Made by a program: the position numbers and the translations under genes. Of a stretch of DNA of 59,109 nt, positions 6,609 to 54,068 are shown one piece after another. The notes under the pieces are model-generated. The model had not been told where the DNA came from. It was given only the letters and a program-made list of their open reading frames with translations, and searched no databases. How positions within the stretch are numbered: position 1 is the first letter of the stretch; every line of letters begins with the position of its first letter. Origin of the DNA: Puniceicoccales bacterium (GTDB lineage: Bacteria; Verrucomicrobiota; Verrucomicrobiia; Opitutales; JAIRLM01); contig JAITOA010000018.1 of assembly GCA_031290195.1 (NCBI GenBank), forward strand, positions 1-59,109, given 5' to 3'.

Positions 6609-6850
6609 GGGAAACCTTACAAAATCCAACGAAATTTGAAAAGCGCAATTTCCCCCAACGAATGACCAACCTCCTTTTTAGCTGACAAATGGCGCCCACC
6701 ATAGTGCTCCGCAGACAAAGGATCTCTCCGCAGCTCCGCGGGGACAATGATTGGCGATTGCGGTGGCGCATTGGCTTAGCAGTTTTTGCCAGAGTGATAT
6801 TTTCGTATTTCCTTTGACAGCCGAGGAGAACCATCGACAATTAATCCACC

Positions 6851-14071: not shown

Positions 14072-14204
14072 GTGTATGTTTTTTCTGCCATCATCATTTC
14101 TACGGGCCAGTGGTCGGAAAAATGACTCGAAGGGGACTTTCGAAGTCAGTGAGCTTGACAGTGCGCCTTCCACCGCAGTTAAATGAATGGTGGATCGCAT
14201 TTCT

Positions 14205-15083
14205 ATGAGACAAATTTTTCTTCTCTTGCCAATGGTTTTGCTGGCCGCCTGTGGTCACCTGGAGGTAAGGAACACGACACCGTCTACCATGGCTACCAAC
14301 GCAGCGGAGGTTTATCCTATCTCCATGCGACTCGACGGTCACAGCGGGGAAGTGATCAGGGAGTCGGTGAAGGCCCGGGTGGTTGTGGACGGGAAGGTAC
14401 GCCCCATGCGGAGAACAGGTGGAAATGAATTCCTCTACGAACATGCTCTCCCCCGGGAACGCAGCAGTACCTCCTACTACTTTGACGTGGATTATTTGCA
14501 AAAAAGCGATGTGGGGAATCGGAAAAAAAACATCAAAACGGACATCTACGGTCTTCGTCTCTGCAATCGCTATGTGCTTGGCTTGGACAGCACGCGCGGG
14601 ATACCCGGGACACAGATCACGGTCATTGGTCGAGGATTTGCCAAGGACGACGAAGTCCTTGTGGGCTCTCTGACAGCGGAGACCCGCTTTGAATCTCCGA
14701 CGGCACTGTGCTTTTTCGTCCCCATCTTGCCGGCAAATACAGTCTATGAGCTCTCTGTCGTCGACGATACGGGCCGCATTCCGGCGGGCAAGTTCCGCAT
14801 CGATGCGGGTTCCCTGAGCGCCGCCCCAATGAATCTGGATTTTCGAAGCGGTGAGAAGGCAAAGCTAGTCCTTTCGCTTCCCATTCCGGCGCCGGAGGGG
14901 GGAGTGCCCGTGGACATTACCACCAATATCCCCGACGCCATTTCCGTGGATGAAGTACAAATTCCCGCCGGGAAAAATTCTGTGACGCTGCACCTGGAGG
15001 GTTTGGAGCCGGCAGAGGGGAGTCTTTTTATCGCCGTTGACGGCTTCCGCACCCTTCGTCTGCCCCTCCACGTTAATCCATAG
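14205..15083 (+). CDS. lipoprotein with IPT/TIG-like Ig-fold domain, function unknown
   Basis: Lipoprotein signal MRQIFLLLPMVLLAAC. The segment GIPGTQITVIGRGFAKDDEVLVGSL..FESPTALCFFVP resembles an IPT/TIG domain. Confidence 0.7.
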   Translation: MRQIFLLLPMVLLAACGHLEVRNTTPSTMATNAAEVYPISMRLDGHSGEVIRESVKARVVVDGKVRPMRRTGGNEFLYEHALPRERSSTSYYFDVDYLQKSDVGNRKKNIKTDIYGLRLCNRYVLGLDSTRGIPGTQITVIGRGFAKDDEVLVGSLTAETRFESPTALCFFVPILPANTVYELSVVDDTGRIPAGKFRIDAGSLSAAPMNLDFRSGEKAKLVLSLPIPAPEGGVPVDITTNIPDAISVDEVQIPAGKNSVTLHLEGLEPAEGSLFIAVDGFRTLRLPLHVNP

Positions 15084-21833: not shown

Positions 21834-22733
21834 ATGGTGGATTTTCTTCTCGTCGACGGCCATCACCTTGCCTTTCGAAGTTTCTATGGCATTGGCGACC
21901 TCACCCGCAGCGACGGTTTCCCAACGGGTGCCCTCTACGGCTTCATAAAGGCTATCTGGCATCTGCAAGACTTGCTTGTTCCCTGCCACACCGTAGTATT
22001 TTTTGACAATGGCCGCTCCGCCAAGCGTCGGGAACTTTTCCCAGAGTATAAGGCCCATCGGAGTCCCATGCCGGAGGAATTGCGCCTGCAACTCCCCCAC
22101 ATCCGGGAGGTAGTCCAGGTTCTTGGTGCCATAAAAATCGAAGAATTGGAGGTGGAGGCCGACGATCTCCTGGCGTCCCTGGCTGTCCGGGAGGCCAATC
22201 GGGGAAAATCCGTCGCCATCGCCAGTTCCGACAAGGATTTTGCACAGATTATCTCCGGTCGCATTACCCTCTGGTATCCTCCAACGTCCTACGGCAATTC
22301 CGCCAAATGGATTCCCGTGGACAGTGCTGCCGCTAAAGAAAAATTCGGCGTCGAGCCCCCATCTATGGTGGACTACCTGTGCCTCGTCGGCGACGCGGCA
22401 GACAACATCCGGGGCGTTGCCGGCATCGGAGTAAAGACCGCGGCAAAGTGGCTACAAGCCTACGGCTCCATCGAGGAAATTGGTCGGCATCTTTCGGAAC
22501 TCCCTCCGCGGCTCGCGAAAAATTTTTCCGAGTCGGCAGCATTGCTGGAACGTAATCGACGTCTCATCCGTTTCGATCTTTCGCTTCCAATCCAGGAAAT
22601 TTTCGACTGCACCATCGACAGGGAAAGACTTTTGGAATTTCTCCGCCAATTCGAATTCAATGGCCTCCTTCGAAAGGCCATGGGGCGCCGCGGCACTCGG
22701 AAGCAAGTGCAAATGACGCTAGGTTCTCAGTAG
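21834..22733 (+). CDS. stand-alone 5'-3' exonuclease (Pol I N-terminal/FEN-like domain)
   Basis: Motifs LLVDGHHLAFRSFY, DKDFAQI, and the H3TH motif LVGDAADNIRGVAGIGVKTAAKWL. 299 aa with no polymerase domain. Confidence 0.9.
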   Translation: MVDFLLVDGHHLAFRSFYGIGDLTRSDGFPTGALYGFIKAIWHLQDLLVPCHTVVFFDNGRSAKRRELFPEYKAHRSPMPEELRLQLPHIREVVQVLGAIKIEELEVEADDLLASLAVREANRGKSVAIASSDKDFAQIISGRITLWYPPTSYGNSAKWIPVDSAAAKEKFGVEPPSMVDYLCLVGDAADNIRGVAGIGVKTAAKWLQAYGSIEEIGRHLSELPPRLAKNFSESAALLERNRRLIRFDLSLPIQEIFDCTIDRERLLEFLRQFEFNGLLRKAMGRRGTRKQVQMTLGSQ

Positions 22734-23743
22734 ACGTCTTTCTGGTAGTGGCGGCTACGGCGCAGTTCCTCCACCCGGGCAAGTGCAGTTTCCCGGGTAA
22801 GTCCTCCGTGGAGGGCGAAGATGGCGACGAGGGCCATTTCCACATCCTTTGCCATGCGATCTGCGTTTCCGCAGACGTAAAAGTGGGCGCCGGTCTCTAT
22901 CCAGCGGTACAATTCTGCTCCATTCTCCAGAATGCGGTCCTGCACATAGATTTTTTGTTCCTGGTCGCGGGAAAATGCAAGATCGAGACGGGAAAGAAGT
23001 CCTTCGCGGAGATAATCTTCCAAGGTTTCCCGAAAGATAAAGTCCGTTCTTTGGTGCCGATCTCCAAAGAAAAGCCAGCTGCGCCCCACCTTTTTACCGC
23101 CGCTCCGTTCCCTCCACCGCTGTCCTAGAAACCCCACGAACGGAGCAATCCCGGTACCAGGGCCGACCATGATAATATCCACTTCACCTTTCTCTGGCAG
23201 CCGGAAGCGGGATTTTACCGGATAGCAGCGCAGGGAATCCCCCACCCGAAGGCGGCGATTGAGGTAACCCGATGCTACTCCAAAAATTTTTTCACCATCA
23301 GTGTTTTGGTAAGTCTCCGTTGCCACTACCAATTGCACGGAATTTGGGTCGGTGAGTGGACTCGAAGCAATGGAATACATGCGGGGTTGCAGCGATTTCA
23401 GTGTAGGTAGTAGAGTTTCAATTACCCCTGCCAGATTGCCACATTCTGGGTTTACCCGACCAATCTCCCAGTGGTCGGCGAGGGCCGCGCGCAGGGGTAT
23501 TTTTCCGTCCATTCCACGAACGGCCACCGGTTCCTCCCCGGACGCGCCGAGTTGTTTTAAAAATTTCTCCACGAACTCCGGTGAATTTTTTGGCAAAATT
23601 CCCAGCCAATCCCCCGGTTCATAGTCAAAAGGTACCGGTGCCGTGATGGTGAGTTGGCAAATTTCCCTATCACTTTCCTTCCCGGAAAGACGTTTTCGTT
23701 CGGCTAGCTCGGCGACGATAGGTGTATCTTTCCCAGGTCCCAT
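22727..23743 (-). CDS. CysJ/diflavin-reductase-like FAD/NADPH-binding oxidoreductase (no flavodoxin domain)
   Basis: Motifs RMYSIASSP, GVASGYL, MVGPGTGIAPFVGF, FYVCGNADRMAKDV and the C-terminal RYQKDVY. ATG 23743 is preferred, but the ORF is open to 23857. Confidence 0.88.
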   Translation of the reverse strand: MGPGKDTPIVAELAERKRLSGKESDREICQLTITAPVPFDYEPGDWLGILPKNSPEFVEKFLKQLGASGEEPVAVRGMDGKIPLRAALADHWEIGRVNPECGNLAGVIETLLPTLKSLQPRMYSIASSPLTDPNSVQLVVATETYQNTDGEKIFGVASGYLNRRLRVGDSLRCYPVKSRFRLPEKGEVDIIMVGPGTGIAPFVGFLGQRWRERSGGKKVGRSWLFFGDRHQRTDFIFRETLEDYLREGLLSRLDLAFSRDQEQKIYVQDRILENGAELYRWIETGAHFYVCGNADRMAKDVEMALVAIFALHGGLTRETALARVEELRRSRHYQKDVY

Positions 23744-23928
23744 GGAATAAAGCTGCAGGAAAAAAATAGCCAATGGCAAACAATAAGGTCCATTTTGGGC
23801 CATTTCTCTGGAAAATATGATGGGAAAATTCTTGACGAGGGGCCCGGTGAAACTCAAATGCCAGCCTCAAAATGTTAATTTCCCCACCTTCTCCTCCGGA
23901 GCCACGGTGCCAGTGCAAAAAAGGTCCG

Positions 23929-27725: not shown

Positions 27726-27807
27726 CCGGTGGAGGAATTTACCGCCGCCGGATGCGGAGGGGTGTTGCCATTGGCATGTGTCCGCCGGGCGATGTTGGGG
27801 AGACGCC

Positions 27808-29157
27808 ATGAAACTTTTGACGAAGCATGCGCACGGTTCCGTGCGGGAGCTGTGGACCATTGCGTGGCCGCTGGTTTTATCGGCGGCGGCCAATATGTTT
27901 ATGCTGCTGGGAGACCGCATTGTGCTGTCCCGCTACTCCACGGAAGCCTTCAACGCAAATGTCGGTGCTCTGCCCTGGGTTTGGACGGCCTATTTCCCAT
28001 TATTTTCCATCGTTTTTATTGCCAATGTTTTCGTCGGCCGTCACAATGGTGCCGGTGACTTTAAGAAAATTGGGCCCACCGTCTGGCAAATGCTGTGGTT
28101 TTCCCTTGCCCTTCTAGTTCCCTTACTGCCACTCTCCTACTTCCTTGCACCCCATTTGCTCGCCCATGATCTTCGCGGGCTCGGGGTTCCCTATTTGCGC
28201 ATCCTGCTGCCATCGGTGCCCATTTCCCTGGCCTCTTTCGGGGCGTTGGCTGCTTTTTTTACGGGTCGTGGGGAGACCCGCCTCGTTTCCGCCGTATCCC
28301 TATTTTGCAACGTGCTCAATTTTGCCTTGGATACGCTGCTGGTTTTCGGCATCGGCCCCTTTCCTGAAATGGGTATCTGCGGTGCCGCCTGGGGAACGGT
28401 CATTGCCCAGCTGATTGCTCTTTGTCTTTTCGGATTTTTTTTCCTCGACCGGCGTCACCGGGAGAAGTACGGGGTCAATGACTGCCGTTTCAATGGCCGC
28501 ATTTTTTGGCAATGCTTCCGCGTTGGCGGCCCCAATGCCTTTAGTGCGACGATCAATTTTATCCTGTGGAGCTGGATCGTTCAGGTGATGGCCCACTACG
28601 TCAGTTCGGAAAATTTTACCGCCTTCGGGGTCAGCAATACGCTCTTTTACTTTCTGCTATTCTTTGTCGAAGGGGTGAGTTTGGCTACGGGAACCATTGC
28701 CTCCAACGCCTACGGTGCCGGTGCCTGGGAGGTCATCGGAAGGAACGCACGTTCCTGGCTAAAATTATCCATTTCCTTCAGTATTTTTGCTTTTTTTGTG
28801 ATGGTGATTTACCCGCGCCCCCTCCTGTTTTTCTTCGTCGACGGACCGATGACCGATGGCTTCCGGTCAAATCTAAAGACCATGCTTTTTCTTACCTGGC
28901 TTGCCATCGCCAACACCGGCATAGAATTCAATCAGCGGCAAACTCTAACTGCCTTCGGGGACACTCTTTTTACCATGGGGGCCAGCCTGTTCGGCTACGC
29001 CGGGATGGTCATTATCCCGGGATTCATTGCCCTCCGAATGACCCACAACGGCGCCTCCTTCCTCGTTGTGGAGGCCATCAGTCAGATTTTTTTCATCATC
29101 ACTTTTTACCTGCGCTACCGTTTCCACTGGATGCGGCATCGGTCCCCGTCGCCGTGA
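27808..29157 (+). CDS. MATE family efflux transporter
   Basis: 12-TM profile with N-terminal VRELWTIAWPLVLSAAANMFMLLGDRIVLSRYS, typical of NorM/DinF-like MATE proteins. Confidence 0.9.
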   Translation: MKLLTKHAHGSVRELWTIAWPLVLSAAANMFMLLGDRIVLSRYSTEAFNANVGALPWVWTAYFPLFSIVFIANVFVGRHNGAGDFKKIGPTVWQMLWFSLALLVPLLPLSYFLAPHLLAHDLRGLGVPYLRILLPSVPISLASFGALAAFFTGRGETRLVSAVSLFCNVLNFALDTLLVFGIGPFPEMGICGAAWGTVIAQLIALCLFGFFFLDRRHREKYGVNDCRFNGRIFWQCFRVGGPNAFSATINFILWSWIVQVMAHYVSSENFTAFGVSNTLFYFLLFFVEGVSLATGTIASNAYGAGAWEVIGRNARSWLKLSISFSIFAFFVMVIYPRPLLFFFVDGPMTDGFRSNLKTMLFLTWLAIANTGIEFNQRQTLTAFGDTLFTMGASLFGYAGMVIIPGFIALRMTHNGASFLVVEAISQIFFIITFYLRYRFHWMRHRSPSP

Positions 29158-30120
29158 CGGATGCACAGTTCCATGGATCGTTAAATTTTTCCCATCGGAG
29201 GAACATTGCCAATGTGCGGCCAGGGAATGGCAAAATTTTTTACCGCACTCTATGTTTTCTAGAAAAATTGCCATCTGCCGCCGGCTAACAGTGAATTTTT
29301 GTTCCGAAAAGAAACGGTGAAGGACCCGCCTCCGCAGGGCCCGGGGGGCGCCTTTGAGAGGTTCTAGTCGCAGGAAGGAGCCCGCCACGGAAATTTCATG
29401 GAGGTCACTGGCCAGCGATTCCAGGGCATCGGAGTCTTCGAGGAGCAATTCCCGACTGTGGAGCAGTGACCTTTCAAAGTTCCGCAGCGGTTCGAAGGAG
29501 CGCCAGAGGGGCAGCAGTTCCAGACGGACACGGTTTCTGGTGTGGACAGGCTGGCCGTTGGTTTCGTCCTCGCACCAGGGCTGACCAATGGCCACCAAAT
29601 ATTGTTTCAAGTTCTCCTTCGTTAGGTGCAATAGGGGGCGCAGGTGCACGCTTCCATCCAGAAATCGCTGGACTTCACGGGGTGCCGTAAGTCCCTCCAA
29701 ATTAGCTCCGCGGGCCAGCCGCAGCAGAAAAGTTTCCAGGGCGTCGTCCCGATGGTGGGCGGTGAGCAGGTAGGGCGTGTGATAGTCGGCCATGACACGG
29801 CGGAAAAATGCCATCCGGTGCCGCCGAAGGTCCGCCTCATTGAGTCCGCCCCCATTCTCCAGGGAGGACCGGTGAAAGGGAAGTTCCAGCTCCGAAGTCA
29901 GATTTTCCACAAATTTTTGATCCCGCCGGGAAGTTATTGGCCGAACGCCGTGGTCAAAGTGGAGAACGGCGAGCCGACTCCGCAGCTGCGGAGTCGTTCC
30001 GTGGAGAAGACGGAGGAGGGCGACGGAGTCGGCGCCGCCGGAGCAGGCGACACAGAGGACTTCCCCGGGAAATTCTCCGGTGGCGGCGAGCGCGTTTTCG
30101 GAGAGAAAAACTCCTTCCAC
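28945..30120 (-). CDS. tilS: tRNA(Ile)-lysidine synthase
   Basis: PP-loop VACSGGADSVALL lies about 25 aa after GTG 30120. The ORF is open to 30399, but that extension has no homology and overlaps the divergent gene. The last ~70 codons run antisense to the MATE gene. Confidence 0.88.
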   Translation of the reverse strand: MEGVFLSENALAATGEFPGEVLCVACSGGADSVALLRLLHGTTPQLRSRLAVLHFDHGVRPITSRRDQKFVENLTSELELPFHRSSLENGGGLNEADLRRHRMAFFRRVMADYHTPYLLTAHHRDDALETFLLRLARGANLEGLTAPREVQRFLDGSVHLRPLLHLTKENLKQYLVAIGQPWCEDETNGQPVHTRNRVRLELLPLWRSFEPLRNFERSLLHSRELLLEDSDALESLASDLHEISVAGSFLRLEPLKGAPRALRRRVLHRFFSEQKFTVSRRQMAIFLENIECGKKFCHSLAAHWQCSSDGKNLTIHGTVHPSRRRGPMPHPVETVAQVKSDDEKNLTDGLHNEEGGAVVGHSEGNESRDNDHPGVAEQAGPHGKKSVPEGS

Positions 30121-30251
30121 CGACGCAGGACAAAAAAAATTCAGAGGGAAGCAAGAATTTCGACCGGGAAAAATGGAATGGAAAATGTGAAGAAGATCCT
30201 TTTTTGCAAAAAACCCTTGCGCAGAAAGAAAAAAGTTTGGAAAATCCGACC

Positions 30252-33200
30252 GTGATCTACTGGAAACGGCGACGGGTGTTATCAAATTGCAGCGGCATTT
30301 CAGGGAAGAAAGGAAGCGGTGGGTCGGCCGGAGCGGACAAATCCGGGCCATCACTACGGAAAAATCTTCTTTTCGGTCTGATCGCCGCAGTAACGGCATT
30401 TTTCCCGGTCCAGTCTGCCACCGCGGCCGTTTACAGCTACACTGATAGCATAGGAGCCCGCGTCGAAGCTGAGGAGTCTTTGGCCATTTTCGGAAATGAA
30501 ATCGTTGTTGAGGGTGAGTACTATTTTACTCCGGACAGCAGTACATGTGATAACAAGGTGCAAGTAAACTACGGTAGCGCGAAAGCCGATCCGGACCATA
30601 TTTTTGGTGGCCTGTCCATCGGAATCGGCAATGTCCATGGCAATGAAGTTGAAGTCATAAATGACAATGACTGTGAAACCGTGAATATCCACGGAGGATT
30701 TGCTTTCTACGGGGACGCGTATGGGAATGAGCTGATGATTGGTGCATCCGCCTCCGCCAATGGAGCCATGGGGGGATCCGCTTACCTGGGGAATGCCCAT
30801 GGCAATATCCTCACATTTCGGGGAATTTTTGCGGACTTCCTCTGTGGAGGTTGCGTTGGTTCCAGGGGAAATGCCTACGAAAATGAAGTGATCATTTCTG
30901 CGGACGACGACAGCACCATCGAGAAAGTTCACGGCGGAAGAACCTTCTGGGGAGATGCCTGTAGCAACGTTGTGTCTGTTTTCGGTGGAACTATTTCCGA
31001 AGAAATCCACGGCGGCGAAGTCATGAACGACGGCAATGCCCATGGAAATTCGGTAAAAATTTTTGCGTCCTCTGATGAGTGCGATGTGACCATATTTGGC
31101 GGCAGCGTCGCGGGAATGGGTGATGCCTACGGAAATGTCGTTGGGGTTGTTGGTGAGAACGATGACGGTGACCTCTTCTCCGTTGGCGCTATTCAGACGT
31201 CCGTCGGCGACATCCATGGAGGCTACGCGAACAGCGGAGATGCCTACGGGAATAACGTTTACTTTTCCGGGGGTTCCGGAGGAAATTTCTACGGCGGCAC
31301 ATCCATGGCCAATGGGTGTATCGGAAATGCATATAATAACAGAGTAAAAGTTTTTTCCGGGGAAGTTGGGGATGTCCACGGGGGATACTGCGCCGGATCT
31401 GGAAATGTGTATGGCAATGGGGTGGAAATTTCCGGATCCGACACCGAAGTGGGATCCGTTTTCGGAGGCTATGTCCAATTGGTATGTAGAGAGATAGAAT
31501 ATGAGGATGAGGATGGAGATATAGAGGAAGTGGAAGATGAAGTTCCCGCCGCCCCCGCCGGAGTCGCATCCGGCAAATATGAAGTTATCGGCGGCTTCGG
31601 AGACGCATCCGGCAATTTTGTATCTTTTTCGGGTGCCCATTCCGCCGATGTCTTCGGCGGGAAAACTTCTTTCGGCGATTCCTGCGGCAATGTGGTGTCA
31701 ATTTCCTCCGGAGAAATTTCCGATTCCGTCATCGGTGGATGTAGCTTTAAGGGTCATTCCTGCAACAATGTTGTGAATATTTCCGGTGATAGTACGTCCG
31801 TTGCATACTGCATTGTAGGCGGCTGCGTTGACCTATGGCTCCCCGACGAACCTACGGTGTACGATGATGGGACCGAATTTTCCTACGGAACCTATTGGGA
31901 CTACGAAGACCGCGGTGGTATCGGAAATGCATGTGGAAATAGTGTGAATTTTTCCGGTCAATGGTGCAGCGAGATCTATGGGGGGTACACGTTCTTTGGA
32001 AATGCGAGCGGCAATGCGGTAACCATTTCCGGCGGTGGAATTGATTATGTGTACGGTGGTTACACGGAAAGGGGCGACGCCGATGGCAACACCGTTAATC
32101 TTTCCAATTGCTCAGTTAGAGCAGCCGGTGGTGGCTTGACGGATATCTGGGGTAATGCGCGGAACAATGTCGTCCATGTGAAGGATTCCTCTGTTTGGGG
32201 TCAAGGAGTTTGGGGAGGCAGTGCGGAATTTGGCATAGTCAAAGGCAATAGTGTGTGCATTGAAAACTCCTATGTTTCGGGTTCAATCGTTGGCGGTGAG
32301 GCCGTGGATGCTCGGAGCCACGTGTGCAATAACTCGGTAACTATCGCCGGCACCTCTGACATTTCCAGCGCGACGCTGCTCGGCTGGTCGTCGCTTTCCG
32401 GAGGAACTTTGGCGATGCACGGCGGAAACGCCCTCCATTTGAAGGGTTGGAGAGGAAGCGTTGCCAGCATTCAAAATTTTGAAATTCTCCGCTTCACTCT
32501 ACCTCGAGGAATCGAAAATGGAGAAACCATCGCAACCGTTGCTACCCCTGGCCCACTTAAGGTAGTAGTCTCTGACTGCGGATTAATCCTCCAGGATGAT
32601 TTTCTGGTCGAGATTGCCATCGACGCAACGCCGAAGCTCGTTGGAAACGACGAAATTTGCCTGATCGACGCTTCCGAGTGCGTATCAGGAGACTATGTCG
32701 TGGCCGATTTTGCCAATGACGACGACCAAACCACCTGCCGCTACGGCTGCAGCAATTACACCTTTGACCTGAGCGAAAGAAGTAACTGTCTCTACGCGAA
32801 ACTTACCAACGTCGAGCTCGTTCGCTCCTACCTGCATGGCGTTGCGGCGCGGACCAATGTGATCAATTCCAGCGGCGACCACATTTCCGGGCTCATTGAA
32901 AATTGGCAATTCGAAGAAGATTTCCTCGTGGCCAATAAAAAATTCAGCTGGTTCATCTCCGCCTTCGGAGAAAAAATGCACGCGAAGACAACTCCGGCCG
33001 TGACGAACCGGCGGGGATTGTTTGTTCTTGGCGGTGCCCTGGAGGGAGTTACGGCGACCGGTCAGCTGGTGGCCGGCCTGGCCACGGAGTGGGGCCTGGA
33101 TAGGTACAGTGTCATCGACGACTACGGAGGAGGGGATGGGAAAATTATCCATGCCGGATTAAATCTCTTCGCCATGCACCAGTGCGCCGGCGGGGTCATG

Positions 33201-33716
33201 GCCAGCGTTGCTGCCCGGTTCGGTGCTGGAAAAATTGAAGATGACGACGGCATTGGGGGGGGCTATGAGAATCGGAGCGCCTACTGTGGGACCCGAGTAG
33301 CCATCGGCTACGACCTGAGAGTTTCGCCAAAGGGAACCGTCGAAGGCCTAACAAAGCTCCTTTGGAACCGTCAATTCGATAAAAACTTACTCTCGCGAGC
33401 CGGAGAAGATCTGCGATTCGACGCCGTAAATTCTCTGAGAACCCAACTATGTCTGCGCTACGTGCATAGTACCCCAGAAGGATCCAATCTATTCGCCGGA
33501 ATTGCCTGGGAGAGGGAATTTGACGGAAAGATATCCGGCGGCGTCGGCGCCATCCACTATGGCGGGGACCATCTTGAACGGAAAGACAGTGCTCTTTTTG
33601 AACTTGGCCTGGAAGTCAAAACCGCAGAGCGCTGGGTCCTACAATGCGGCGCCCAGGGTTCAATTGGCGCCAGAGACGGCGTATCCGCAAGCCTGAAATT
33701 CTGCAAGAGCTTCTAG
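30252..33716 (+). CDS. large autotransporter-like outer-membrane repeat protein (paralogue 1)
   Basis: Signal-like LLFGLIAAVTAFFPVQSATA, a passenger of roughly 750 aa built from G(D/N)AxGNxV...GG repeats, and a C-terminal beta-barrel-like ~280 aa ending KFCKSF. Start is GTG 30252 or 30276; the ORF open from 29937 is antisense to tilS. Confidence 0.85.
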   Translation: MIYWKRRRVLSNCSGISGKKGSGGSAGADKSGPSLRKNLLFGLIAAVTAFFPVQSATAAVYSYTDSIGARVEAEESLAIFGNEIVVEGEYYFTPDSSTCDNKVQVNYGSAKADPDHIFGGLSIGIGNVHGNEVEVINDNDCETVNIHGGFAFYGDAYGNELMIGASASANGAMGGSAYLGNAHGNILTFRGIFADFLCGGCVGSRGNAYENEVIISADDDSTIEKVHGGRTFWGDACSNVVSVFGGTISEEIHGGEVMNDGNAHGNSVKIFASSDECDVTIFGGSVAGMGDAYGNVVGVVGENDDGDLFSVGAIQTSVGDIHGGYANSGDAYGNNVYFSGGSGGNFYGGTSMANGCIGNAYNNRVKVFSGEVGDVHGGYCAGSGNVYGNGVEISGSDTEVGSVFGGYVQLVCREIEYEDEDGDIEEVEDEVPAAPAGVASGKYEVIGGFGDASGNFVSFSGAHSADVFGGKTSFGDSCGNVVSISSGEISDSVIGGCSFKGHSCNNVVNISGDSTSVAYCIVGGCVDLWLPDEPTVYDDGTEFSYGTYWDYEDRGGIGNACGNSVNFSGQWCSEIYGGYTFFGNASGNAVTISGGGIDYVYGGYTERGDADGNTVNLSNCSVRAAGGGLTDIWGNARNNVVHVKDSSVWGQGVWGGSAEFGIVKGNSVCIENSYVSGSIVGGEAVDARSHVCNNSVTIAGTSDISSATLLGWSSLSGGTLAMHGGNALHLKGWRGSVASIQNFEILRFTLPRGIENGETIATVATPGPLKVVVSDCGLILQDDFLVEIAIDATPKLVGNDEICLIDASECVSGDYVVADFANDDDQTTCRYGCSNYTFDLSERSNCLYAKLTNVELVRSYLHGVAARTNVINSSGDHISGLIENWQFEEDFLVANKKFSWFISAFGEKMHAKTTPAVTNRRGLFVLGGALEGVTATGQLVAGLATEWGLDRYSVIDDYGGGDGKIIHAGLNLFAMHQCAGGVMASVAARFGAGKIEDDDGIGGGYENRSAYCGTRVAIGYDLRVSPKGTVEGLTKLLWNRQFDKNLLSRAGEDLRFDAVNSLRTQLCLRYVHSTPEGSNLFAGIAWEREFDGKISGGVGAIHYGGDHLERKDSALFELGLEVKTAERWVLQCGAQGSIGARDGVSASLKFCKSF
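33255..33262 (+). repeat. G8 homopolymer inside the barrel-coding part of autotransporter paralogue 1
   Basis: cattGGGGGGGGctat encodes GIGGGY. Confidence 0.95.
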
Positions 33717-33839
33717 GGGAGAAGCAGTCTTCGTCTTCGGTCGGTTAGCCCCATGGACGGGAATGACATCGAAGACTGGAACGCCGAAGCAACCACGCCA
33801 ACGTCGGAGTGGGAACTTCATCGGGAAGCCACAAAATTC

Positions 33840-34466
33840 TTAGATTATTCCCCTGATAGGCATCGGATCCAACGCCGGAGACCCCTCTTCGGCAAAGTCT
33901 TCCTCGAAGATGACCTGTAGGAAAATTTTACAAACGGCGTAGCAGGCTCGCTCGTAGATGAGATTTCTCTGGGTGGCATAGGAAGAAAAATCCAGCCTTT
34001 GGACAATTTCCCTGGTGGGCGTATGGATGGCAACCCAGACCAGGCCAACGGGCTGCGACGGAGAGCTGCCGGCGCGGGAACCAATGCCGACAACGGCAAT
34101 GGAAAAATCGGAAAACAATCTCCGCCGGAGGCCCTGCGCCATGGCGCCGGCAACCTCTCTGCTGGCCCAGTTGAAGTTTTGCAAAAAAATTTCCGGGATG
34201 TCCAGCAGGGACGCCATGGCCTTCTCCCCCCATACCACCACACTACCCGAAAAAACAGTCGCAATGTCCGGTTCGTTGGACCACAGATTGGACAGCATGC
34301 CCCCGGTCACGGCCTCGGCGATGGCAACGGTTTGCTTCCGCCGCCGCAGAATGGAGTGACACAGAGAAATGAGCGAATAGATATCCGTACCGCAGTCACG
34401 ACCCTGGAATGCGTAGTGGGACTCATCCAGAGACCCGTCTACCGCGTGCACACCACCCGTTGTCAT
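33840..34466 (-). CDS. pncC: CinA-C-terminal-domain / nicotinamide-nucleotide amidohydrolase (PncC-like)
   Basis: TVAIAEAVTGGMLSNLWS..GSVVVWGEKAMASLLDIP..REVAGAMAQG..IAVVGIGSRAGSSPSQPVGLVWVAI matches the CinA_C pattern (ESCTGG..VtYsneaK..GiAGP..kPvGtV). Confidence 0.85.
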   Translation of the reverse strand: MTTGGVHAVDGSLDESHYAFQGRDCGTDIYSLISLCHSILRRRKQTVAIAEAVTGGMLSNLWSNEPDIATVFSGSVVVWGEKAMASLLDIPEIFLQNFNWASREVAGAMAQGLRRRLFSDFSIAVVGIGSRAGSSPSQPVGLVWVAIHTPTREIVQRLDFSSYATQRNLIYERACYAVCKIFLQVIFEEDFAEEGSPALDPMPIRGII

Positions 34467-34529: not shown

Positions 34530-34920
34530 GGGGGCGCATTGGATTCGATTCCGCGAAGCAGAACGGCGCTGCATGCCGGAGAAGGGTGGTTGGCTCCGTT
34601 ATCAATCCATTCATTGTCACTAAATGGCAAAAATAACATCGTTGGTGGTGTTCAGTTCCGCGGAAGCGGGCTGAAGGCTGCCTAGGCAATGCCGCCCAAT
34701 GAGGCGGCACGGCGTGGGGCTGTTCGCCCACCGGGCTCCACGCCGGTTGTCGGTGGGCAAGGCTTCGGAGGAGTGCGGACCCGGAGCCGAGATTACGCGC
34801 TCGCCGAAGGCATTCTAGGCTGCACCGGAATCCTTTGGTTAAATCCAAGGCACAGCTAAGCATGTAGACGCACCGTTCGAGGGCACGGAAGACGTGGGTT
34901 CAACTCCCACCGCCTCCACC
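34530..34920 (+). ncRNA. ssrA: tmRNA (ssrA)
   Basis: The 5' GGGGGCGCATTGGATTCGA and the 3' GGAAGACGTGGGTTCAACTCCCACCGCCTCCACC form a tRNA-Ala-like acceptor with G3-U and a T arm. Internal tag ORF 34626-34685 encodes GKNNIVGGVQFRGSGLKAA-stop. The terminal CCA is only partly encoded (CC). Confidence 0.93.
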
Positions 34921-35138
34921 GAATCTTTTCCCGGACCCTCAATTTCCGGGGCTGCTTCCGTTGGCGTTGCATTGGACTACGCCTTCCAATTGCCTTTTCA
35001 TTTGCCCGACCCTTCAATTCCACCGGATCCGGCAGTGAACTTCGATTTGTCGGAGGGAGGTTGGGCGCCCAAACAAATCCTGCCTTCGAACATCTTCGTG
35101 GCTTGTCCTTTGGGGAATTGCAGTTTCTTTTTCACGCC

Positions 35139-36647: not shown

Positions 36648-39032
36648 ATGGAAGAAGATAAGCAGCGGGTGGCTTCGGTGCAGACGCATTTGGAGACGGC
36701 CGAAGGGTTGGGCATTGATATTTCGACGGGAAATCTTGCCGGACAGGCCAATGGGGCGGTCACCGTCCAGCTGGGAGAAACCGTCGTTTTTGTTGCCGTG
36801 ACCGCAGCGGAAAAAGTTTCCTCGGAGCAGGATTACTTTCCTCTTGGGGTAGAGTATCGGGAAAAATTTTGCGCCGCCGGTCGCTTCCCGGGTGGCTACG
36901 TACGCCGGGAAGGCCGCCCCTCCGAAAAGGAAATTCTTACGGCACGGCTTTGTGACCGCCCACTTCGGCCGCTATTTCCTAGGGGGTTTCGCAATGAGGT
37001 GCAGGTGGTTGGCATGGTCCTCGCCGCTGACCTTGGAAACGAGCCGGACGTGCTCATGGTAAACGGTGCCTCTGCGGCCCTCCTCTGTTCGGATATTCCC
37101 TGGAATGGCCCCATTGGCTGTGTGCGCATCGGAGAAGTAAAGGGTGAGTTCGTTATAAATCCGACCAATGGAGAGCTTTTTGAGTCTAACCTCGACCTTC
37201 TCTACGTGGGAAATGAGCGGGACATGCTGATGATCGAAGGGAGCGCAGACCAAATCTCCGAATCCCGCTTTCTGGAGGCACTAACCTTTGCCCAGGAACA
37301 AATCCAGAGCGTCATTGCTGCCCAGCGCCGGCTCGCCGCAAAGGCTGGGAAAGCAAAGCGAACATTCCCACTATTTGCGGTTCCGCAGGACATTCTGGCC
37401 CACTGCGCCATGGTCTACGGACAGGACCTGGCGGCGGCGGTTGCCCTGGCGACAAAACCAACCAGGGAAGCCGCCATACGGGAAATTCAGGGAAAAGCGC
37501 TTGTTTCCGTGCGGGAAAAATTCGGAGAATCCGTTCAATCCCATGCCGTTGCCATGGCCTTTGAGGAATTGCAGGAAAATTTGTACCGCAAGGCAATTTT
37601 GGAAGGAAAGCAGCGGGTGGATGGCCGTTCCGCCGAAGACCTTCGGGCCATTACCTGCGCAGCGGGCTTTTTACCCCGCGTCCATGGAGTTTCTCTATTC
37701 CAAAGAGGAGAAACTCAGGCCATGGTGTCGGTAACGCTAGGGACAGGCCGAGATGCCCAGGCGTTGGAAGGAATCACGGGTGGGGTTAATGAAAAGTCCT
37801 TCATTCTACACTACAATTTCCCGCCATTTTCCGTCGGCGAAACGGGGCGTTTTGGGTCACCGGGACGCAGGGAAGTTGGCCATGGGGCCCTTGCCGAACG
37901 GGCTCTCCTTCCCGTCATCCCCGATGCGGAAACCTTTCCCTATTCCCTACGCGTGGTGTCGGAAGTTTTGGAATCCAACGGTTCCTCTTCCATGGCAACG
38001 GTCTGCGGAGGATCACTGGCTCTCATGGATGCGGGAGTTCCTCTGCTGGCTCCGGTTTCGGGAATTTCCACGGGCTTGATTACGGAAAGGGACAGTGAGG
38101 GAAACATTACGAAGTACGTAGTTCTCACGGACATCCTCGGTTCAGAGGATCACTACGGGGACATGGACTTCAAAATTGCCGGAACGAATGAGGGGATCAC
38201 TGGCTTTCAGTTGGATCTGAAAATTGCTGGCCTTCCCTTCGCCATTGCCGAGGAGGCCGTCCGTTGCAATACGAGGGCGCGGAGTCACATTGCAAAAATT
38301 ATGGAAGAAACCCTTGCCGAACCGCGGACGGACCTAAAGCCCTGGGCGCCCCGCATGCGGCAAATTCAAATCCCCGCGGATAAGATTGGTGCGCTCATCG
38401 GTCCCGGCGGAAAAAACATTCGGCGCATCGCCGAAGAAACGGGCGCTAAAATTGACGTGGATTCGAATAATAGCGGTCGCGTTATGGTATTTGCATCTTC
38501 CGCTGCGGCATTGGATGCGGCGATACGGGAAATTGGACTTATGAACTGTGAAATTGAAGTTGGGAAAACCTACCGCGGCGTCGTGCGCGGCATTAAGGAA
38601 TTCGGTGTTTTTGTGGAGTGCCTACCAGGAAAGGAGGGGTTGGTGCACATTTCCGAGCTGGACGAAGGTCGCGTGGAAAATGCGGAGGATATTTGCCGTA
38701 TCGGAGACGAAATGGTTGTCCGCTGCATTGGTTCCGACGAAAGAGGTCGCGTGAAATTAAGTCGAAGGGCCGCCCTTTGCGATGCTCGCGGGGTACCCTA
38801 TGAGCCAGCGAGAGCTCCGGCGTTTCGTCCCTCCGGGGGTGGATTCGGCGGTCCCCGCAGGGATTTTCCTTCGGGCGGCGATAGGGGGCGCGGCGGACCA
38901 CCGAGGGGAAGGCCCGGAGAAAATCGTCCCTTTGGCGGCGGTGACCGCCGCGGCGGAGGAAGAGACAGCGGAGGAGGAGCACGCCGCGGCGGCTCGGACC
39001 GCGGATGGCAGCGGGGTGGCCGCGACTACTGA
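36648..39032 (+). CDS. pnp: polyribonucleotide nucleotidyltransferase (PNPase) with Arg/Gly-rich C-terminal tail
   Basis: Two RNase PH domains, KH ([15 protein letters not shown]), S1 ([19 protein letters not shown]), then a tail of roughly 75 aa rich in RGG/GGR. Confidence 0.97.
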
Positions 39033-39059: not shown

Positions 39060-39956
39060 ATGGGTCAGGCGGTAATGTTCAGTGGCCAAGGTGCCCAGTT
39101 TGTTGGCATGGGCCAGGCTCTCCAAGGTCGTTCCCGGAAAATGTGGGAATGCTTCGAGCGAGCCGGCGCCCTCCTTGGCTATGATATTTCGCGCATCTGT
39201 TTCCAGGGACCACCGGAGTTACTTGCGGAGACTATCATCTGCCAGCCGGCTCTCTTCACGGTCGGTTGGGGGGCTTTTTTAACGCTCCAGGAGGGTGGTT
39301 TTCTGGATGGTCTCACTGTTTGCTGCGGCCAGAGCCTCGGGGAGTGGGTTGCCTTGGTTGCAACTGGGATTGTCACCTTTGAGGATGGGCTCCACGCCGT
39401 TTCCCAGAGGGCTCGCTTCATGCAGGATGCCTGCGAGGGAGAAGAGGGTGCCATGGCCGCATTTATTGGGGGGCAACGTCCGAGAGTTCTGGAGCTTTGC
39501 GCGCTAGCGTCTGTCACCATTTCCAATTTCAATGCGCCGGACCAGGTCGTTATTTCTGGGAAAAGAGAAAATGTGGCGGAAGCCATTACCATGGCGGAAA
39601 AATTCGGAATTCGCCGCGCCGTAGCCCTTAATGTTGCTGGGGCCTACCACTGCTCCATGATGGCAACTGCAAAGGAGCGCTTCGCCGAAGTTGTGGAGTC
39701 TCTGCCAATGAAATGTCCGTGCGTCCCTTTTATTTCCAATGTTACCGGAAAGGTGGTTGAGGATCCGGAGGAAATTCGCCGGCTGATTATTGAACAGATT
39801 GTGTCCCCCGTGCGCTGGGAGGACTGCATGAAAACGGCCTGGGAACTTGGCGCCAGAACATTCTACGAGTGCGGGGCTGGAAAAGTTCTCGTCGGACTCT
39901 GCCGAAAAAATTTACCTGATGCCAGGGCAATTTCCGCCGAGGAACTGCCAGTCTGA
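39060..39956 (+). CDS. fabD: malonyl CoA-ACP transacylase
   Basis: MFSGQGAQFVGMG, active-site GQSLGEW, and NVAGAYHCSMM. Confidence 0.95.
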   Translation: MGQAVMFSGQGAQFVGMGQALQGRSRKMWECFERAGALLGYDISRICFQGPPELLAETIICQPALFTVGWGAFLTLQEGGFLDGLTVCCGQSLGEWVALVATGIVTFEDGLHAVSQRARFMQDACEGEEGAMAAFIGGQRPRVLELCALASVTISNFNAPDQVVISGKRENVAEAITMAEKFGIRRAVALNVAGAYHCSMMATAKERFAEVVESLPMKCPCVPFISNVTGKVVEDPEEIRRLIIEQIVSPVRWEDCMKTAWELGARTFYECGAGKVLVGLCRKNLPDARAISAEELPV

Positions 39957-51089: not shown

Positions 51090-51456
51090 GGGATTTACCC
51101 TCATCGAAGTTGCGGCGGCTCTGGTACTTTTGCTGCCAGTGCTACTTCTGGCCAATGAAATGTTCCTCTACCTGCAACGCCAATTTGCCCTCCAGGTGGC
51201 CCGGGCAGAACTGCCGGAACTCCGTAGGACCCTCGAAGATTTTTTGGAAAAAACAAGTCGCACGCCACACGGCGGAGAGTCTACCGTAGGCGTCACCTGG
51301 CATCGGAACGATGCCGGAACGATTCAAATTGAAGAATTGCAGGACGAAAAATTGCCAAAAAAATACCTGCAACTCACTCCCGTGGCCGGCATCGACCTCT
51401 GGCGCTGCGAATGGCAAAATGGAGAACTGTTCCGTGCCTTCTTCCTGGCTCCCTAG
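51061..51456 (+). CDS. prepilin-type N-terminal cleavage/methylation domain protein (pseudopilin)
   Basis: MEKLSQKKCEG/FTLIEVAAALVLLLPVLLLA. Overlaps the preceding pseudopilin gene by 29 nt. Confidence 0.7.
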   Translation: MEKLSQKKCEGFTLIEVAAALVLLLPVLLLANEMFLYLQRQFALQVARAELPELRRTLEDFLEKTSRTPHGGESTVGVTWHRNDAGTIQIEELQDEKLPKKYLQLTPVAGIDLWRCEWQNGELFRAFFLAP

Positions 51457-51650
51457 GCGGGACAGGGGGTCTACTTGCGCCGAAAACGTCTTACCAAACT
51501 CCGACTCTCCTCGAAGAGCCAGCACCCGAACGTGGTGAATTTCATGGCAACGGGGAGTTGCCATCGTTAAAAATTTATTGCGCATCCGTGTGTTTTTTTA
51601 GAAAATTAAGAACCATGGGTAAAAAAGTCTTTGCGGATACCTCCTTGGGA

Positions 51651-51659
51651 GGGGGGGGG
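51651..51659 (+). repeat. G9 homopolymer at the translation start of autotransporter paralogue 2
   Basis: ttGGGAGGGGGGGGGATG. The tract fills the spacer between an SD-like GGGAGG and ATG 51660. If ATG 51615 is used instead, it encodes Gly-Gly-Gly. Confidence 0.95.
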
Positions 51660-54068
51660 ATGAGTCTCCTCCGGAAAATTCAACGGCGGTCGCGGATAGG
51701 ACAATCTCTACGGAGAAAAGCACTGGCCATCCTGCTGGTCGCCGCGGTGCCACTGCTTCCCCAGCAAGTGGTGGCTGAACCGGTTTCACTTAGCGGTAGT
51801 ATGCTTTCTAATTACTACTATGGAGTGAAAGCGGAGGGTGCGGATGAAGCGGCCACCGGCGGTGAACTGATGGTCAATGGTTGTACTTTTCCTAGCACTG
51901 GTTACCTTTCCGCTGGATACAGCGCTGAAAGTTATGCAACAGGCAACTCGGTAACATTTACCGGTGATTCGACGAGCTTTGAAGGTTCAGGCAATAGCAT
52001 TCGCGGTGGATGCTCAGATCATTTCCATGCCCAGGACAATGCCATCACATTCAGCGCCAATGTAACTTACACCAATAGTTTAAGCGAAGAAGAAATCTGT
52101 GGTGGCGATGCCGGCTTGAAAGCAACGGGCAATGGGGTGACCATTGACGACGGAGTGGTACTGAACTTTCTTAATGCCAGAGGCAGAATCTATGGCGCGG
52201 AGGCTGCCTACGCCAATGGCAATTGGGTTGCCGTGTTGGGAAAGGTGGATGTCACAGATGGTTGGGTCGAACTCGCTGGAGCTTGCGGTTATTACTCTGC
52301 TTCCTGGAACACCGTGACAGTCTCCGGTGGCTCCGTCAAAGCTAACATTTTTGGGGGATGCAGTGAAGGGTCTGTAAGCTGTAACAGCGTCATTGTCACC
52401 GGAGGTGCCGAAGTGGCAAAAGGGAAAGAAAGGGAAGGTCTACCAAATGGTATTTCTGGAGGTTTCTCTATGGTCAATTCTGCTGCCGGCAACAAAGTTT
52501 GCATTTCCGGAGAGGAAACGACCGTCGGTTCTGTTGCAGAGAGAATTAATGTCTACGGTGGTTTTATATACACGTATGGAGACTTGGACATTCCTTGCAT
52601 CGGGAACGCCGTTGAAATCAGCGGCGGAACCATTGCAGCGGACATCTTCGGTGGCTATGCATTGAACTTTGGAGGCAATGGCTACGCGGTAGTTTCCAAT
52701 AACACCCTGTGGATTCGCGGTGGGTCTGATACTATAAATCTGGAGGAGTCAAATTTATATGGTTGGGGAGGAGAAGGATACATAATTCACAGCAACAACA
52801 CACTACACGTGGACAATTGGCGCGGAACGGTGAAGTCCATTCAAAATTTTGACAGGTTTCACTTTACCCTTCCCGAAGACGTTGCCGACGGCGACCTTCT
52901 ACTCCAGGTTTCCGGAACCGCTTCCTGGCCAGACGGCACATTGGCGACAATCGACTTCGCCGGAGACGAGACCGGCCTCGAATTCGGGGACAGCATTACG
53001 CTAATCCAAGCGGACGAGTTGACCGCGGGAACCCTCTGCGCCGATCGGGTAGTTGCTTTTCTGGACGGCAACCCGTTTGCCTTCACGCTTTCCGTGGATG
53101 GGAATAGCCTCCTTGCCACGCTGGAAAATATCCTCTCCGTTCCGTCGGGAAGTAGCCACCTTGCCGCCATAGACCGCTCCTACTTCCACGGCATCGCGGC
53201 CGCGGTGGCCGGAGAAAATGCCGGCGGCGACTCCATTTCCCGGGTCATTGACAATTGGCAATTCGGTGAAGCCAAGGACCTTGGCCGATTCCTCTGGTTC
53301 GGGTCTTTCCAGGGAGACAAAGTCCTCATGCGGGCGGCACCGGTGGTGGAAAATAAGTCCTGCCACTTCAATGTCGGCGGCGCCGTTGAATATAAATCCT
53401 ACCACGGCAACTTCCTCACCGGCGTCGCCGCTGAAAGCAGTTGGAGCGACTACGACGTGGAGCAATCCCTCGGCGGCGGCGGCGGAAAAGTGCGCCACCA
53501 CGGGGCCAATTTCTTCGCGAAGCAGCGCTTCGCCTCCGGGACCGACCTTGCACTCATTGTCCGCGGCGGCAGGGGGAAAGTCCGCGACGATTCCGGCACC
53601 GATTGCTGCCGCAGCTACGACGGCCGGTCCAGCTACCACGGCGTCCAGGGGTCTCTCGGACGGCAGTTTCGAATCTCCGCGGAGGAATCCCTCGAGGGCT
53701 ACGGAAAATTTTCCTGGAACCGGAGAACCCGGAGTGACCTTCCGACGGCCGGAGGCGGAGAGCTGCACGTCGACGCGGTGAATTCCCTCCGGGGCCAGCT
53801 GGGTCTGCGCTATTGCAGCGAGTTAAAAGTCGACGGAAACATCTTCTGCGGCATCGGCTTCGAACACGAGTTCGACGGCCGAATCGGAGGAACGATCGGA
53901 GCAACGGCCCTTCCAAAGGTCGGCGATGACCGGCGCAATTGCGGCTTCGCCGAGGTCGGTGTGGACCGAAGGATCTCCGGCCGCTGGGTCCTCAGCGGCG
54001 GCATCCGGGCAATGGCGGGCGCCAGGGACGGCTGGTCGGGCGGCATCCGCATCGGCGCGGCCTTCTGA
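51660..54068 (+). CDS. autotransporter-like outer-membrane repeat protein (paralogue 2)
   Basis: Signal MSLLRKIQRRSRIGQSLRRKALAILLVAAVPLLPQQVVA, the same GNxV..GG repeats as paralogue 1, and a C-terminal barrel-like domain ending IRIGAAF. An alternative start at ATG 51615 has no SD. Confidence 0.85.
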   Translation: MSLLRKIQRRSRIGQSLRRKALAILLVAAVPLLPQQVVAEPVSLSGSMLSNYYYGVKAEGADEAATGGELMVNGCTFPSTGYLSAGYSAESYATGNSVTFTGDSTSFEGSGNSIRGGCSDHFHAQDNAITFSANVTYTNSLSEEEICGGDAGLKATGNGVTIDDGVVLNFLNARGRIYGAEAAYANGNWVAVLGKVDVTDGWVELAGACGYYSASWNTVTVSGGSVKANIFGGCSEGSVSCNSVIVTGGAEVAKGKEREGLPNGISGGFSMVNSAAGNKVCISGEETTVGSVAERINVYGGFIYTYGDLDIPCIGNAVEISGGTIAADIFGGYALNFGGNGYAVVSNNTLWIRGGSDTINLEESNLYGWGGEGYIIHSNNTLHVDNWRGTVKSIQNFDRFHFTLPEDVADGDLLLQVSGTASWPDGTLATIDFAGDETGLEFGDSITLIQADELTAGTLCADRVVAFLDGNPFAFTLSVDGNSLLATLENILSVPSGSSHLAAIDRSYFHGIAAAVAGENAGGDSISRVIDNWQFGEAKDLGRFLWFGSFQGDKVLMRAAPVVENKSCHFNVGGAVEYKSYHGNFLTGVAAESSWSDYDVEQSLGGGGGKVRHHGANFFAKQRFASGTDLALIVRGGRGKVRDDSGTDCCRSYDGRSSYHGVQGSLGRQFRISAEESLEGYGKFSWNRRTRSDLPTAGGGELHVDAVNSLRGQLGLRYCSELKVDGNIFCGIGFEHEFDGRIGGTIGATALPKVGDDRRNCGFAEVGVDRRISGRWVLSGGIRAMAGARDGWSGGIRIGAAF

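Follow-up and report, generated by a model that had tools for sequence, protein, structure and literature searches.

What does a single 3.4-kb, cysteine-rich reading frame encode in the genome of an uncultured Puniceicoccales bacterium? The frame lies at positions 30252-33716 of contig JAITOA010000018.1, here called the window (the whole stretch of DNA analysed, 59,109 nucleotides). The initial annotation, made from the sequence alone, had described its product as a giant autotransporter-like protein that is built from an unassigned repeat and is unusually rich in cysteine. Our analysis assigns the gene, with a probability of about 0.85, to a classical monomeric (type Va) autotransporter of an uncultured termite-gut member of the Verrucomicrobiota. 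The autotransporter identity is supported by structure prediction with AlphaFold2 (AF2), by Foldseek comparisons and by alignment with relatives that bear the PF03797 beta-domain. Features of the locus are summarized in Table 1; amino acid (aa) numbering throughout starts at GTG 30252, the start used in the initial annotation, which gives a product of 1154 aa.

Table 1. Features of the autotransporter gene and of its upstream region (window coordinates).
Feature	Residues (aa)	Position	Strand	Basis
Divergent intergenic region, probable tilS start to autotransporter start		30121..30236	.	tilS start call and TilS domain
Candidate start codons TTG 30237, GTG 30252 and GTG 30276		30237..30278	+	sequence reading
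Long N-terminal region with predicted Sec-type signal peptide	1-58	30252..30425	+	read from sequence
N-terminal cap, ~2-3 degenerate rungs (FGNEIVVEG, CDNKVQVNYG...IFGG)	59-125	30426..30626	+	sequence; AF2 confidence (pLDDT) climbs from 47 to 86
Array of 19 LOFI-type beta-solenoid rungs	126-726	30627..32429	+	motif count, NF038205, AF2 pLDDT mostly >90
Loop insert 1, NDDGDLFSVGAIQ	303-315	31158..31196	+	unit length 39; pLDDT <50
Acidic loop insert 2, REIEYEDEDGDIEEVEDEV, purine-rich	413-431	31488..31544	+	flanking residues 427-440 pLDDT <50
Acidic/aromatic loop insert 3, VDLWLPDEPTVYDDGTEFSYGTYWDYEDRGGI	526-557	31827..31922	+	unit length 57; pLDDT <50 for aa 530-552
Junction GGNALHLKGWRGSVASIQNFEILRFTLP, then beta-rich stalk/cap domain	724-856	32421..32819	+	strands 727-856, pLDDT ~70-85
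Predicted alpha-helical linker	859-894	32826..32933	+	AF2 helices at aa 859-884 and 886-894
Predicted 12-stranded outer-membrane beta-barrel translocator, terminal Phe	898-1154	32943..33713	+	AF2, Foldseek, alignment

The open reading frame (ORF), 29937..33716 on the plus strand, is intact and ends with a stop codon at 33714-33716. The frame, the signal-like segment and all of the example repeat units quoted in the initial annotation were found in the sequence. Logan contigs of a termite-gut metagenome run, an independent assembly, reproduce the region 29900-34000 without a single difference, and the depth is an even 12-13x. Misassembly was accordingly rejected, and the gene is no artefact of assembly. 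At window positions 31021-31147 the Logan assembly breaks into three contigs (a 127-nt middle piece, 30-nt overlaps, 0 base differences), which suggests a graph branch within the repeat array, caused by strain variation or by a repeated k-mer. A promoter and terminator scan of 29900-34000 revealed nothing exceeding shuffle expectation, and its sole sigma-70-like site falls outside the intergenic interval.

The full-length AF2 model, computed from an alignment of 23 sequences, has a mean predicted local distance difference test (pLDDT) score of 79.2 and contains about 12 long strands at aa 898-1153. Within this barrel the block means of pLDDT are mostly 75-92, the lowest being 68. Foldseek matched the full model to EspP, EstA, BrkA, NalP, AIDA-I and Hbp at E values of 8.5e-11 to 9e-8 (up to 4e-7 with AaaA included), with template modelling (TM) scores of 0.67-0.81 on the target for barrel-only entries. 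All of the top 18 matches in the Protein Data Bank (PDB) are type Va beta-domains or full autotransporters. The last ~295 aa match type Va translocators, in agreement with the C-terminal barrel and terminal Phe proposed earlier. The best matches to the full model are pre-cleavage EspP structures, in which a helix lies inside the barrel, and the linker helix of our protein is likewise expected, from the predicted model, to occupy the barrel pore. The predicted model contains both the 12-stranded barrel and the linker helix of a type Va translocator.

Homology points the same way. Over the C-terminal 330 aa, the protein and the C-termini of 19 relatives can be aligned from end to end (alignment A1, 20 rows), PF03797 detects 11 of the 20 rows (best E 7.6e-22), and the profile of this alignment matches the BrkA barrel 3qq2 at E 7.5e-4. 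The C-terminus, ...SLKFCKSF, has the terminal aromatic residue (Phe) of type Va proteins, and its positions -5 (F) and -7 (L) are hydrophobic. A phmmer search of the protein against PDB sequences found nothing, and no Pfam family was credited to the whole protein at E<=1 or to its thirds at E<=10; a zinc-ribbon Pfam match was dismissed as chance.

At the N-terminus, the segment LLFGLIAAVTAFFPVQSATA/AVYSY (aa 39-58/59-63) resembles a Sec signal peptide, as type Va secretion presupposes. It comprises a basic n-region (..SLRKN), a 13-residue h-region (LLFGLIAAVTAFF) and a c-region (PVQSATA) with A-T-A at -3/-1, so that cleavage is predicted at ATA/AV. The AF2 pLDDT is below 50 for aa 1-84.

The repeats between these two ends had been proposed to have the period of one beta-helix rung. 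AF2 agrees, placing three strand segments in each ~26-aa unit, mostly with pLDDT >90. Each rung is 25-29 aa long and follows the pattern G(D/N)AxGNxVx(I/V/F)...(V/I)(H/F/Y)GG. The family-consensus motif G.[AVS]..N.[VILF].[VILF] occurs in 18 copies at aa 59-730, whereas 5000 composition-preserving shuffles yield 0.15 copies on average and never more than 3. The copies are spaced by 25-29 aa, save at the three loop inserts (39, 66 and 57 aa). With a looser anchor, 19 units were counted at aa 126-718, with 2-3 degenerate rungs ahead of them, i.e. about 19-22 rungs overall. The array proper covers ~600 aa (aa 126-726) and the degenerate N-terminal rungs ~65 aa; the total of ~600-660 aa is less than the roughly 750 aa estimated in the initial annotation. 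Its 19-aa acidic insert in purine-rich DNA was confirmed (insert 2 in Table 1); at 31492-31542, Tandem Repeats Finder identified a weak (AGATGA)n microsatellite that overlaps it. This hexamer is the only repeat that the program reports, none having the rung period (~75-87 nt); the rungs are fully diverged at the DNA level, and their origin as recent DNA duplications was rejected.

A passenger-only AF2 model has a mean pLDDT of 84.3. Its Foldseek matches in the PDB are mainly parallel beta-helices, including all of the best-ranked ones, with Ag43 first (best E 6e-3). Behind it come PL6 lyases, SepA, TibA, UpaB, Hbp, pertactin, VacA and tailspikes. All of the matches, that of Ag43 included, are weak; at E<=1e-3 this model retrieved no solved structure. 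In the predicted structure the fold class is clear, a three-faced beta-solenoid of the beta-helical kind found in type Va passengers, though the rung type is without a solved representative. The array passes into the junction GGNALHLKGWRGSVASIQNFEILRFTLP, which corresponds to the family consensus GNTLN...NFxxxNFxLP, with N726 and F743 invariant, and which also occurs in the closest relatives P0042, P0045, P0048 and P0056. The stalk/cap domain that includes it holds 6 cysteines.

The repeat is already named. With 30.5 bits (E 2.3e-7), the protein is recognized by NCBIfam NF038205, ‘LOFI repeat protein’ (Campy_LoFi_RPT), passing the curated cut-off of 25, so the repeat cannot be called unassigned; a match to a described repeat family was what the initial annotation had itself named as contradicting its view. 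The match is weak: its best stretch, aa 599-619, covers profile positions 4-23 of 23, and as single repeats two stretches reach E<=1, neither of them E<=0.01. NF038205 also matches 12 of the 23 rows of alignment A2 (best 1.2e-16), and ..GG....GNA.GN.V.ISG of our protein shares its register with the family consensus VYGGxxxxGxAxxNxVxIxGG. No paper using the name ‘LOFI repeat’ was found. The repeats PATR (PF12951), pertactin (PF03212) and filamentous haemagglutinin gave no hidden Markov model (HMM) match to the whole protein at E<=1 or to its thirds at E<=10. Pfam thus agrees with the earlier statement that no PATR, pertactin, haemagglutinin or Chlam_PMP (PF02415) repeat is recognizable, and none of the relatives retrieved was reported to carry a Chlam_PMP domain.

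Relatives were found by word-indexed and exhaustive HMMER searches covering 5.8 billion clusters and 1.84 billion representatives. The consensus unit GGxxxxGxAxxNxVxIxGG is common to at least 1458 representative clusters (50% identity) at E<=1e-3, 644 at E<=1e-10 and 44 at E<=1e-30. The best matches are 33-39% identical over aa ~560-1150; the nearest, P0042, shares 39% identity (E 1.8e-68, plus strand), and in these collections nothing exceeded that value. No close relative was found among 185,579 GTDB species genomes. P0042 and P0046, the two best matches looked up, carry PF03797, and several of the best matches, these two included, are named autotransporters by their source, e.g. MDR1826717.1 of a Methylobacteriaceae metagenome-assembled genome (MAG). 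Relatives reach 3103 aa, which makes a protein of 1154 aa mid-sized rather than giant. By sequence comparison, this is a very divergent (<=39% identity) member of a large, mostly cysteine-poor autotransporter family.

Its cysteine content sets the protein apart from that family. The initial annotation had counted about 25 cysteines in the passenger; there are exactly 25 (aa 59-856), in addition to 5 in the barrel, out of 31 in total. Cysteine makes up 2.67% of the protein (3.05% of the passenger), ~13 times the family median: in 187 relatives (40 word-index matches and the best 150 of the exhaustive search) the median is 0.20%, the 95th percentile 0.65% and the maximum 1.27%, and the eight closest relatives have 0-5 cysteines each. 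The earlier claim of a fixed repeat position also stands, since Cys occupies x of G(D/N)AxGN in 5 of 19 units, where random placement expects 0.58 (P = 1.5e-4). The residues at x, rung by rung, are H Y H Y C H Y Y Y Y S C C C S D R K C, while the relatives mostly have T, N or S there and Cys in 1 of 305 units. Codons for Tyr (TAY), His (CAT) and Cys (TGY) at this position are single-nucleotide neighbours. Cys478, Cys504 and Cys561 lie in a common register on three consecutive rungs, and Cys497 and Cys525 each come just after the GG turn of consecutive rungs. Closely spaced pairs were rejected as the organizing arrangement (6 pairs at <=11 aa, 7.2 expected, P 0.81). The C-G-G-C that frames the conserved GG turn (LCGGCVGSRGNAYEN, aa 198-201) has a counterpart, ICGGCSGHGNAYGN, in the distant family members P0030 and P0031, whose group is the next most cysteine-rich (1.4-1.6% in the passenger).

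The host lineage itself is rich in cysteine, cytoplasmic housekeeping proteins included. The mean Cys content of the remaining 37 ORFs in the window is 1.48%, and polynucleotide phosphorylases (PNPases) of related Opitutae/Verrucomicrobiota MAGs (loci L001-L008) contain 1.3-2.1%, compared with a median of 0.74% for all 80 fetched PNPases. In the window, the product of pnp (36648-39032) has 13 Cys (1.6%) and that of fabD (39060-39956) 13 Cys (4.4%); a 533-aa ORF at 5028-6629 (-) has 1 Cys (0.19%), unlike the remaining window. Since the proteome of the lineage is generally cysteine-rich and the gut habitat is largely anoxic, the most economical reading, which we favour, is that the 25 passenger cysteines are tolerated in a reducing periplasm and habitat. 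Selection may nevertheless act on the Tyr/His/Cys stripe at x (+3) of GDAxGN. According to studies in E. coli, only closely spaced disulfides are tolerated in autotransporter export (PMC3546941), and a passenger fragment of Chlamydia trachomatis PmpD has 18 Cys, all disulfide-bonded and driving oligomerisation (PMC6005502). The contrast drawn earlier with cysteine-poor classical passengers therefore holds in part: our protein is a strong outlier in its family, but cysteine-rich type V passengers have a precedent, PmpD, in the Planctomycetes-Verrucomicrobia-Chlamydiae (PVC) superphylum.

Taken as a type Va autotransporter, the precursor would be brought to the periplasm by its Sec signal peptide. 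The C-terminal ~255 aa would then be inserted by the beta-barrel assembly machinery (BAM) as a 12-stranded outer-membrane barrel, with the helix of aa 859-894 in the pore. Through it the passenger would be threaded outward unfolded, C-terminus first, and would fold vectorially outside the cell, its ~21 rungs of ~26 aa forming a three-faced beta-solenoid. The junction domain with its GNxLx...NFxxxxFxLP motif would cap the solenoid, and three acidic or aromatic loops would decorate it. We infer these steps from established knowledge of type Va secretion. By analogy with the general role of beta-helical autotransporter passengers, the protein is most likely a surface adhesin or aggregation factor. 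An adhesin/aggregation autotransporter in an anaerobic gut or oral commensal provides an example of such a function, irrespective of repeat type (PMC7549365).

Several observations weigh against this assignment. The start codon is uncertain: no in-frame ATG was found in ORF 29937..33716 (+), none of the three candidate starts is preceded by a clear Shine-Dalgarno sequence, and the sequence suggests one of the three as the true start; the database entry for the protein (P0001, 1159 aa) matches TTG 30237. The 27-40 aa that precede the hydrophobic core are unusually many, and the extended signal peptide ESPR (PF13018; MNKIYKVVW-type extension), a domain carried by some relatives (P0002, P0027, P0029 and P0037), was not matched in our protein. 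The PF03797 search that had been proposed as a check gave no match, though it detects the 11 alignment rows mentioned above. Neither PF03797 nor TIGR01414 matched even the C-terminal 338 aa alone at E<=10, so the barrel assignment rests on transitive homology and predicted structure. The beta-signal is atypical, with Lys at -3 where the relatives have Trp, Tyr or Phe. Finally, tolerance of cysteine leaves the register-specific residues (P 1.5e-4) unaccounted for, as well as the twofold excess of the autotransporter over the average window ORF despite its export.

These last two points bear on what the cysteines do, and here other explanations compete with tolerance. The cysteines could be functional, forming intra- and/or intermolecular disulfides after export that staple adjacent rungs and cross-link the protein as oligomers or in a disulfide-bonded surface layer, in the manner of the chlamydial Pmps. 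We regard this as unlikely, though it accounts for several features. The passenger has 25 cysteines, the 187 relatives almost none; Cys478/504/561 share a register on three consecutive rungs and Cys497/525 follow consecutive GG turns; and the odd number in the passenger leaves at least one free for intermolecular bonds. Verrucomicrobiota, to which the host is assigned by PNPase identity, belong to the PVC superphylum, as do the Chlamydiae. All 18 Cys of the PmpD fragment are disulfide-bonded and drive oligomerisation (PMC6005502). However, PF02415 is unmatched and no sequence relationship to Pmp repeats exists, close pairs are not enriched (6 observed, 7.2 expected), and an oxidant for surface disulfides is uncertain in a largely anoxic termite gut. 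Moreover, the family and GTDB searches found no orthologues for a comparison of cysteine conservation, and no Dsb-type gene was seen within the 59-kb window. A more elaborate form of this idea, in which a gut member of the Verrucomicrobiota converted a cysteine-free LOFI-type autotransporter into a thiol-studded, Tyr/His/Cys-laddered rod with 25 Cys and disulfides within the rod, between copies or to envelope proteins, seems to us decidedly improbable.

The ladder of Tyr, His and Cys at x, together with the CGGC, Cx4C and Cx6C pairs, might instead form an exposed metal-binding or redox stripe on the cell surface. Y (6), H (3) or C (5) fills x in 14 of the 19 rungs, a position that is mostly T/N/S in relatives (Cys in 1 of 305 units), and the CGGC at the GG turn of aa 198-201 is shared with P0030 and P0031. 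The basis of this proposal is purely compositional, however: no metal-binding family was matched and the orientation of the side chains is inferred. The codons being single-nucleotide neighbours, the pattern could also be drift around an ancestral Tyr ladder, and we consider a functional stripe very unlikely. Least credible, and barely worth entertaining, is that the ORF is nonfunctional, i.e. an assembly chimera built from repeats, a pseudogene in decay or a mere shadow of an antisense ORF of 428 aa (30354..31640). The missing ATG, the absence of a Pfam domain, the long antisense frame and the break in the Logan contigs at 31021-31147 would fit such a view. Against it stand the identical independent assembly at even 12-13x depth, an uninterrupted 3.4-kb frame, plus-strand homology to E 1.8e-68, a confident AF2 model for everything between the cap and the final residue, and the retention of family-invariant residues; a Gly-rich frame is expected to cast such an antisense shadow. 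The reading that we retain is a type Va autotransporter with tolerated cysteines.

The window represents core chromosome. The autotransporter gene follows genes for PPDK, enolase, ClpB, RNase III, YchF, tRNA-Arg, a MATE pump and tilS, and beyond it lie cinA/pncC, tmRNA, uppP, pnp, fabD, nusA, infB, obg and dnaE. The encoded PNPase is 58-62% identical to those of Verrucomicrobiota, Opitutae and Puniceicoccales MAGs, and <=52% identical to those of the other fetched loci. The only public run listed with the gene is a termite-gut metagenome, in which 99% of the gene's sampled words are present. By these sequence comparisons, the host is identified as an uncultured, Opitutae-like member of the termite-gut Verrucomicrobiota. 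The autotransporter gene is absent from the 80 pnp-flanking loci, and no synteny with Verrucomicrobiota relatives was found.

The divergently oriented tilS was listed as ORF 28945-30399 (-), including 93 codons upstream of its probable start that overlap the 5′ end of the autotransporter gene in antisense. Judged from its sequence, the most probable start of tilS is GTG 30120 (-), which lies 26 aa ahead of the SGGADS PP-loop; accordingly, the intergenic region measures 115-155 bp, and the 93-codon extension is probably not translated. At its 3′ end, tilS overlaps the MATE ORF 27778-29157 (+) by ~210 nt in the raw ORF list. The tmRNA gene, 34530-34921 (+), scored 118 bits with Rfam, has a predicted tag peptide GKNNIVGGVQFRGSGLKAA and is located ~800 nt downstream of the autotransporter gene, past cinA/pncC.

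No credible Pfam family could be attributed to the ORFs 51411-54068 (+), 5028-6629 (-) and 235-1380 (+), which encode 885, 533 and 381 aa, respectively. For the 376-aa product of ORF 22727-23857 (-), similarity to the sulfite reductase flavoprotein CysJ is confined to the C-terminal half, with its FAD/NADPH (FNR-like) part (profile positions ~313-539 and 372-597); the product is a reductase module on its own rather than a complete CysJ. A 298-aa ORF, 14187-15083 (+), has a marginal IPT/TIG domain (21.6 bits, cut-off 20.9) and overlaps the start of an ABC transporter ORF at 15037; it may encode another surface protein.

The importance of the protein is modest. It is an ordinary-type classical autotransporter, and its cysteine load is its one unusual feature. 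It exemplifies a type Va translocator wholly missed by the Pfam and TIGRFAM beta-domain models and recovered by profile, transitive and structure-based evidence. Because standard beta-domain HMMs miss a real translocator here, autotransporters of poorly sampled phyla, such as the termite-gut Verrucomicrobiota, are probably under-annotated. The ~26-aa ‘LOFI’ rung also defines a very large autotransporter family, of at least 1458 clusters, without a Pfam repeat model. As a natural extreme, the protein offers a test case of how many cysteines a type V passenger can carry: its 25 are scattered along the passenger, close pairs being no commoner than expected by chance, in contrast to the rule of closely spaced disulfides derived from E. 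coli (PMC3546941). If they were cross-linked in vivo, the verrucomicrobial envelope would be linked to chlamydial envelope biology, and, were the protein a thiol-studded rod, redox-cross-linked envelopes would be a wider PVC trait that extends beyond the Chlamydiae.

Compared with known systems, the protein shares its order of parts (signal peptide, solenoid, junction, helix, 12-stranded barrel and terminal Phe) with the type Va proteins EspP, BrkA, AIDA-I, Ag43 and pertactin. Its barrel model superposes on the barrels of EspP, BrkA, NalP and AIDA-I (TM 0.67-0.81 on the target), and Ag43 is the best match to its passenger model. Sequence identity to solved type Va barrels is only 12-17%, and PF03797 misses our protein. 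It differs from classical type Va passengers and their translocators in its ~26-aa rungs of another sequence type, in Lys at -3 and in its 25 Cys. With the NF038205 LOFI proteins it has in common the repeat consensus, the ~26-aa period and the GNTLN...NFxxxNFxLP junction, although it matches the model weakly and comes from a termite-gut member of the Verrucomicrobiota, not from a Campylobacter. Within the LOFI-type family it stands apart through Y/H/C in place of T/N/S at x, a Cys content 13 times the family median and a nearest relative that is 39% identical. In the passenger fragment of PmpD, all 18 Cys are disulfide-bonded (PMC6005502). Our protein has no GGA(I/L/V) and FxxN repeat system, and PF02415 does not match it. 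Like our protein, the chlamydial Pmps are type V autotransporters of the PVC superphylum with a beta-rich, cysteine-rich passenger, and a thiol-studded rod, improbable as we consider it, would parallel the cysteine-rich Pmps of the disulfide-bonded chlamydial outer membrane complex.

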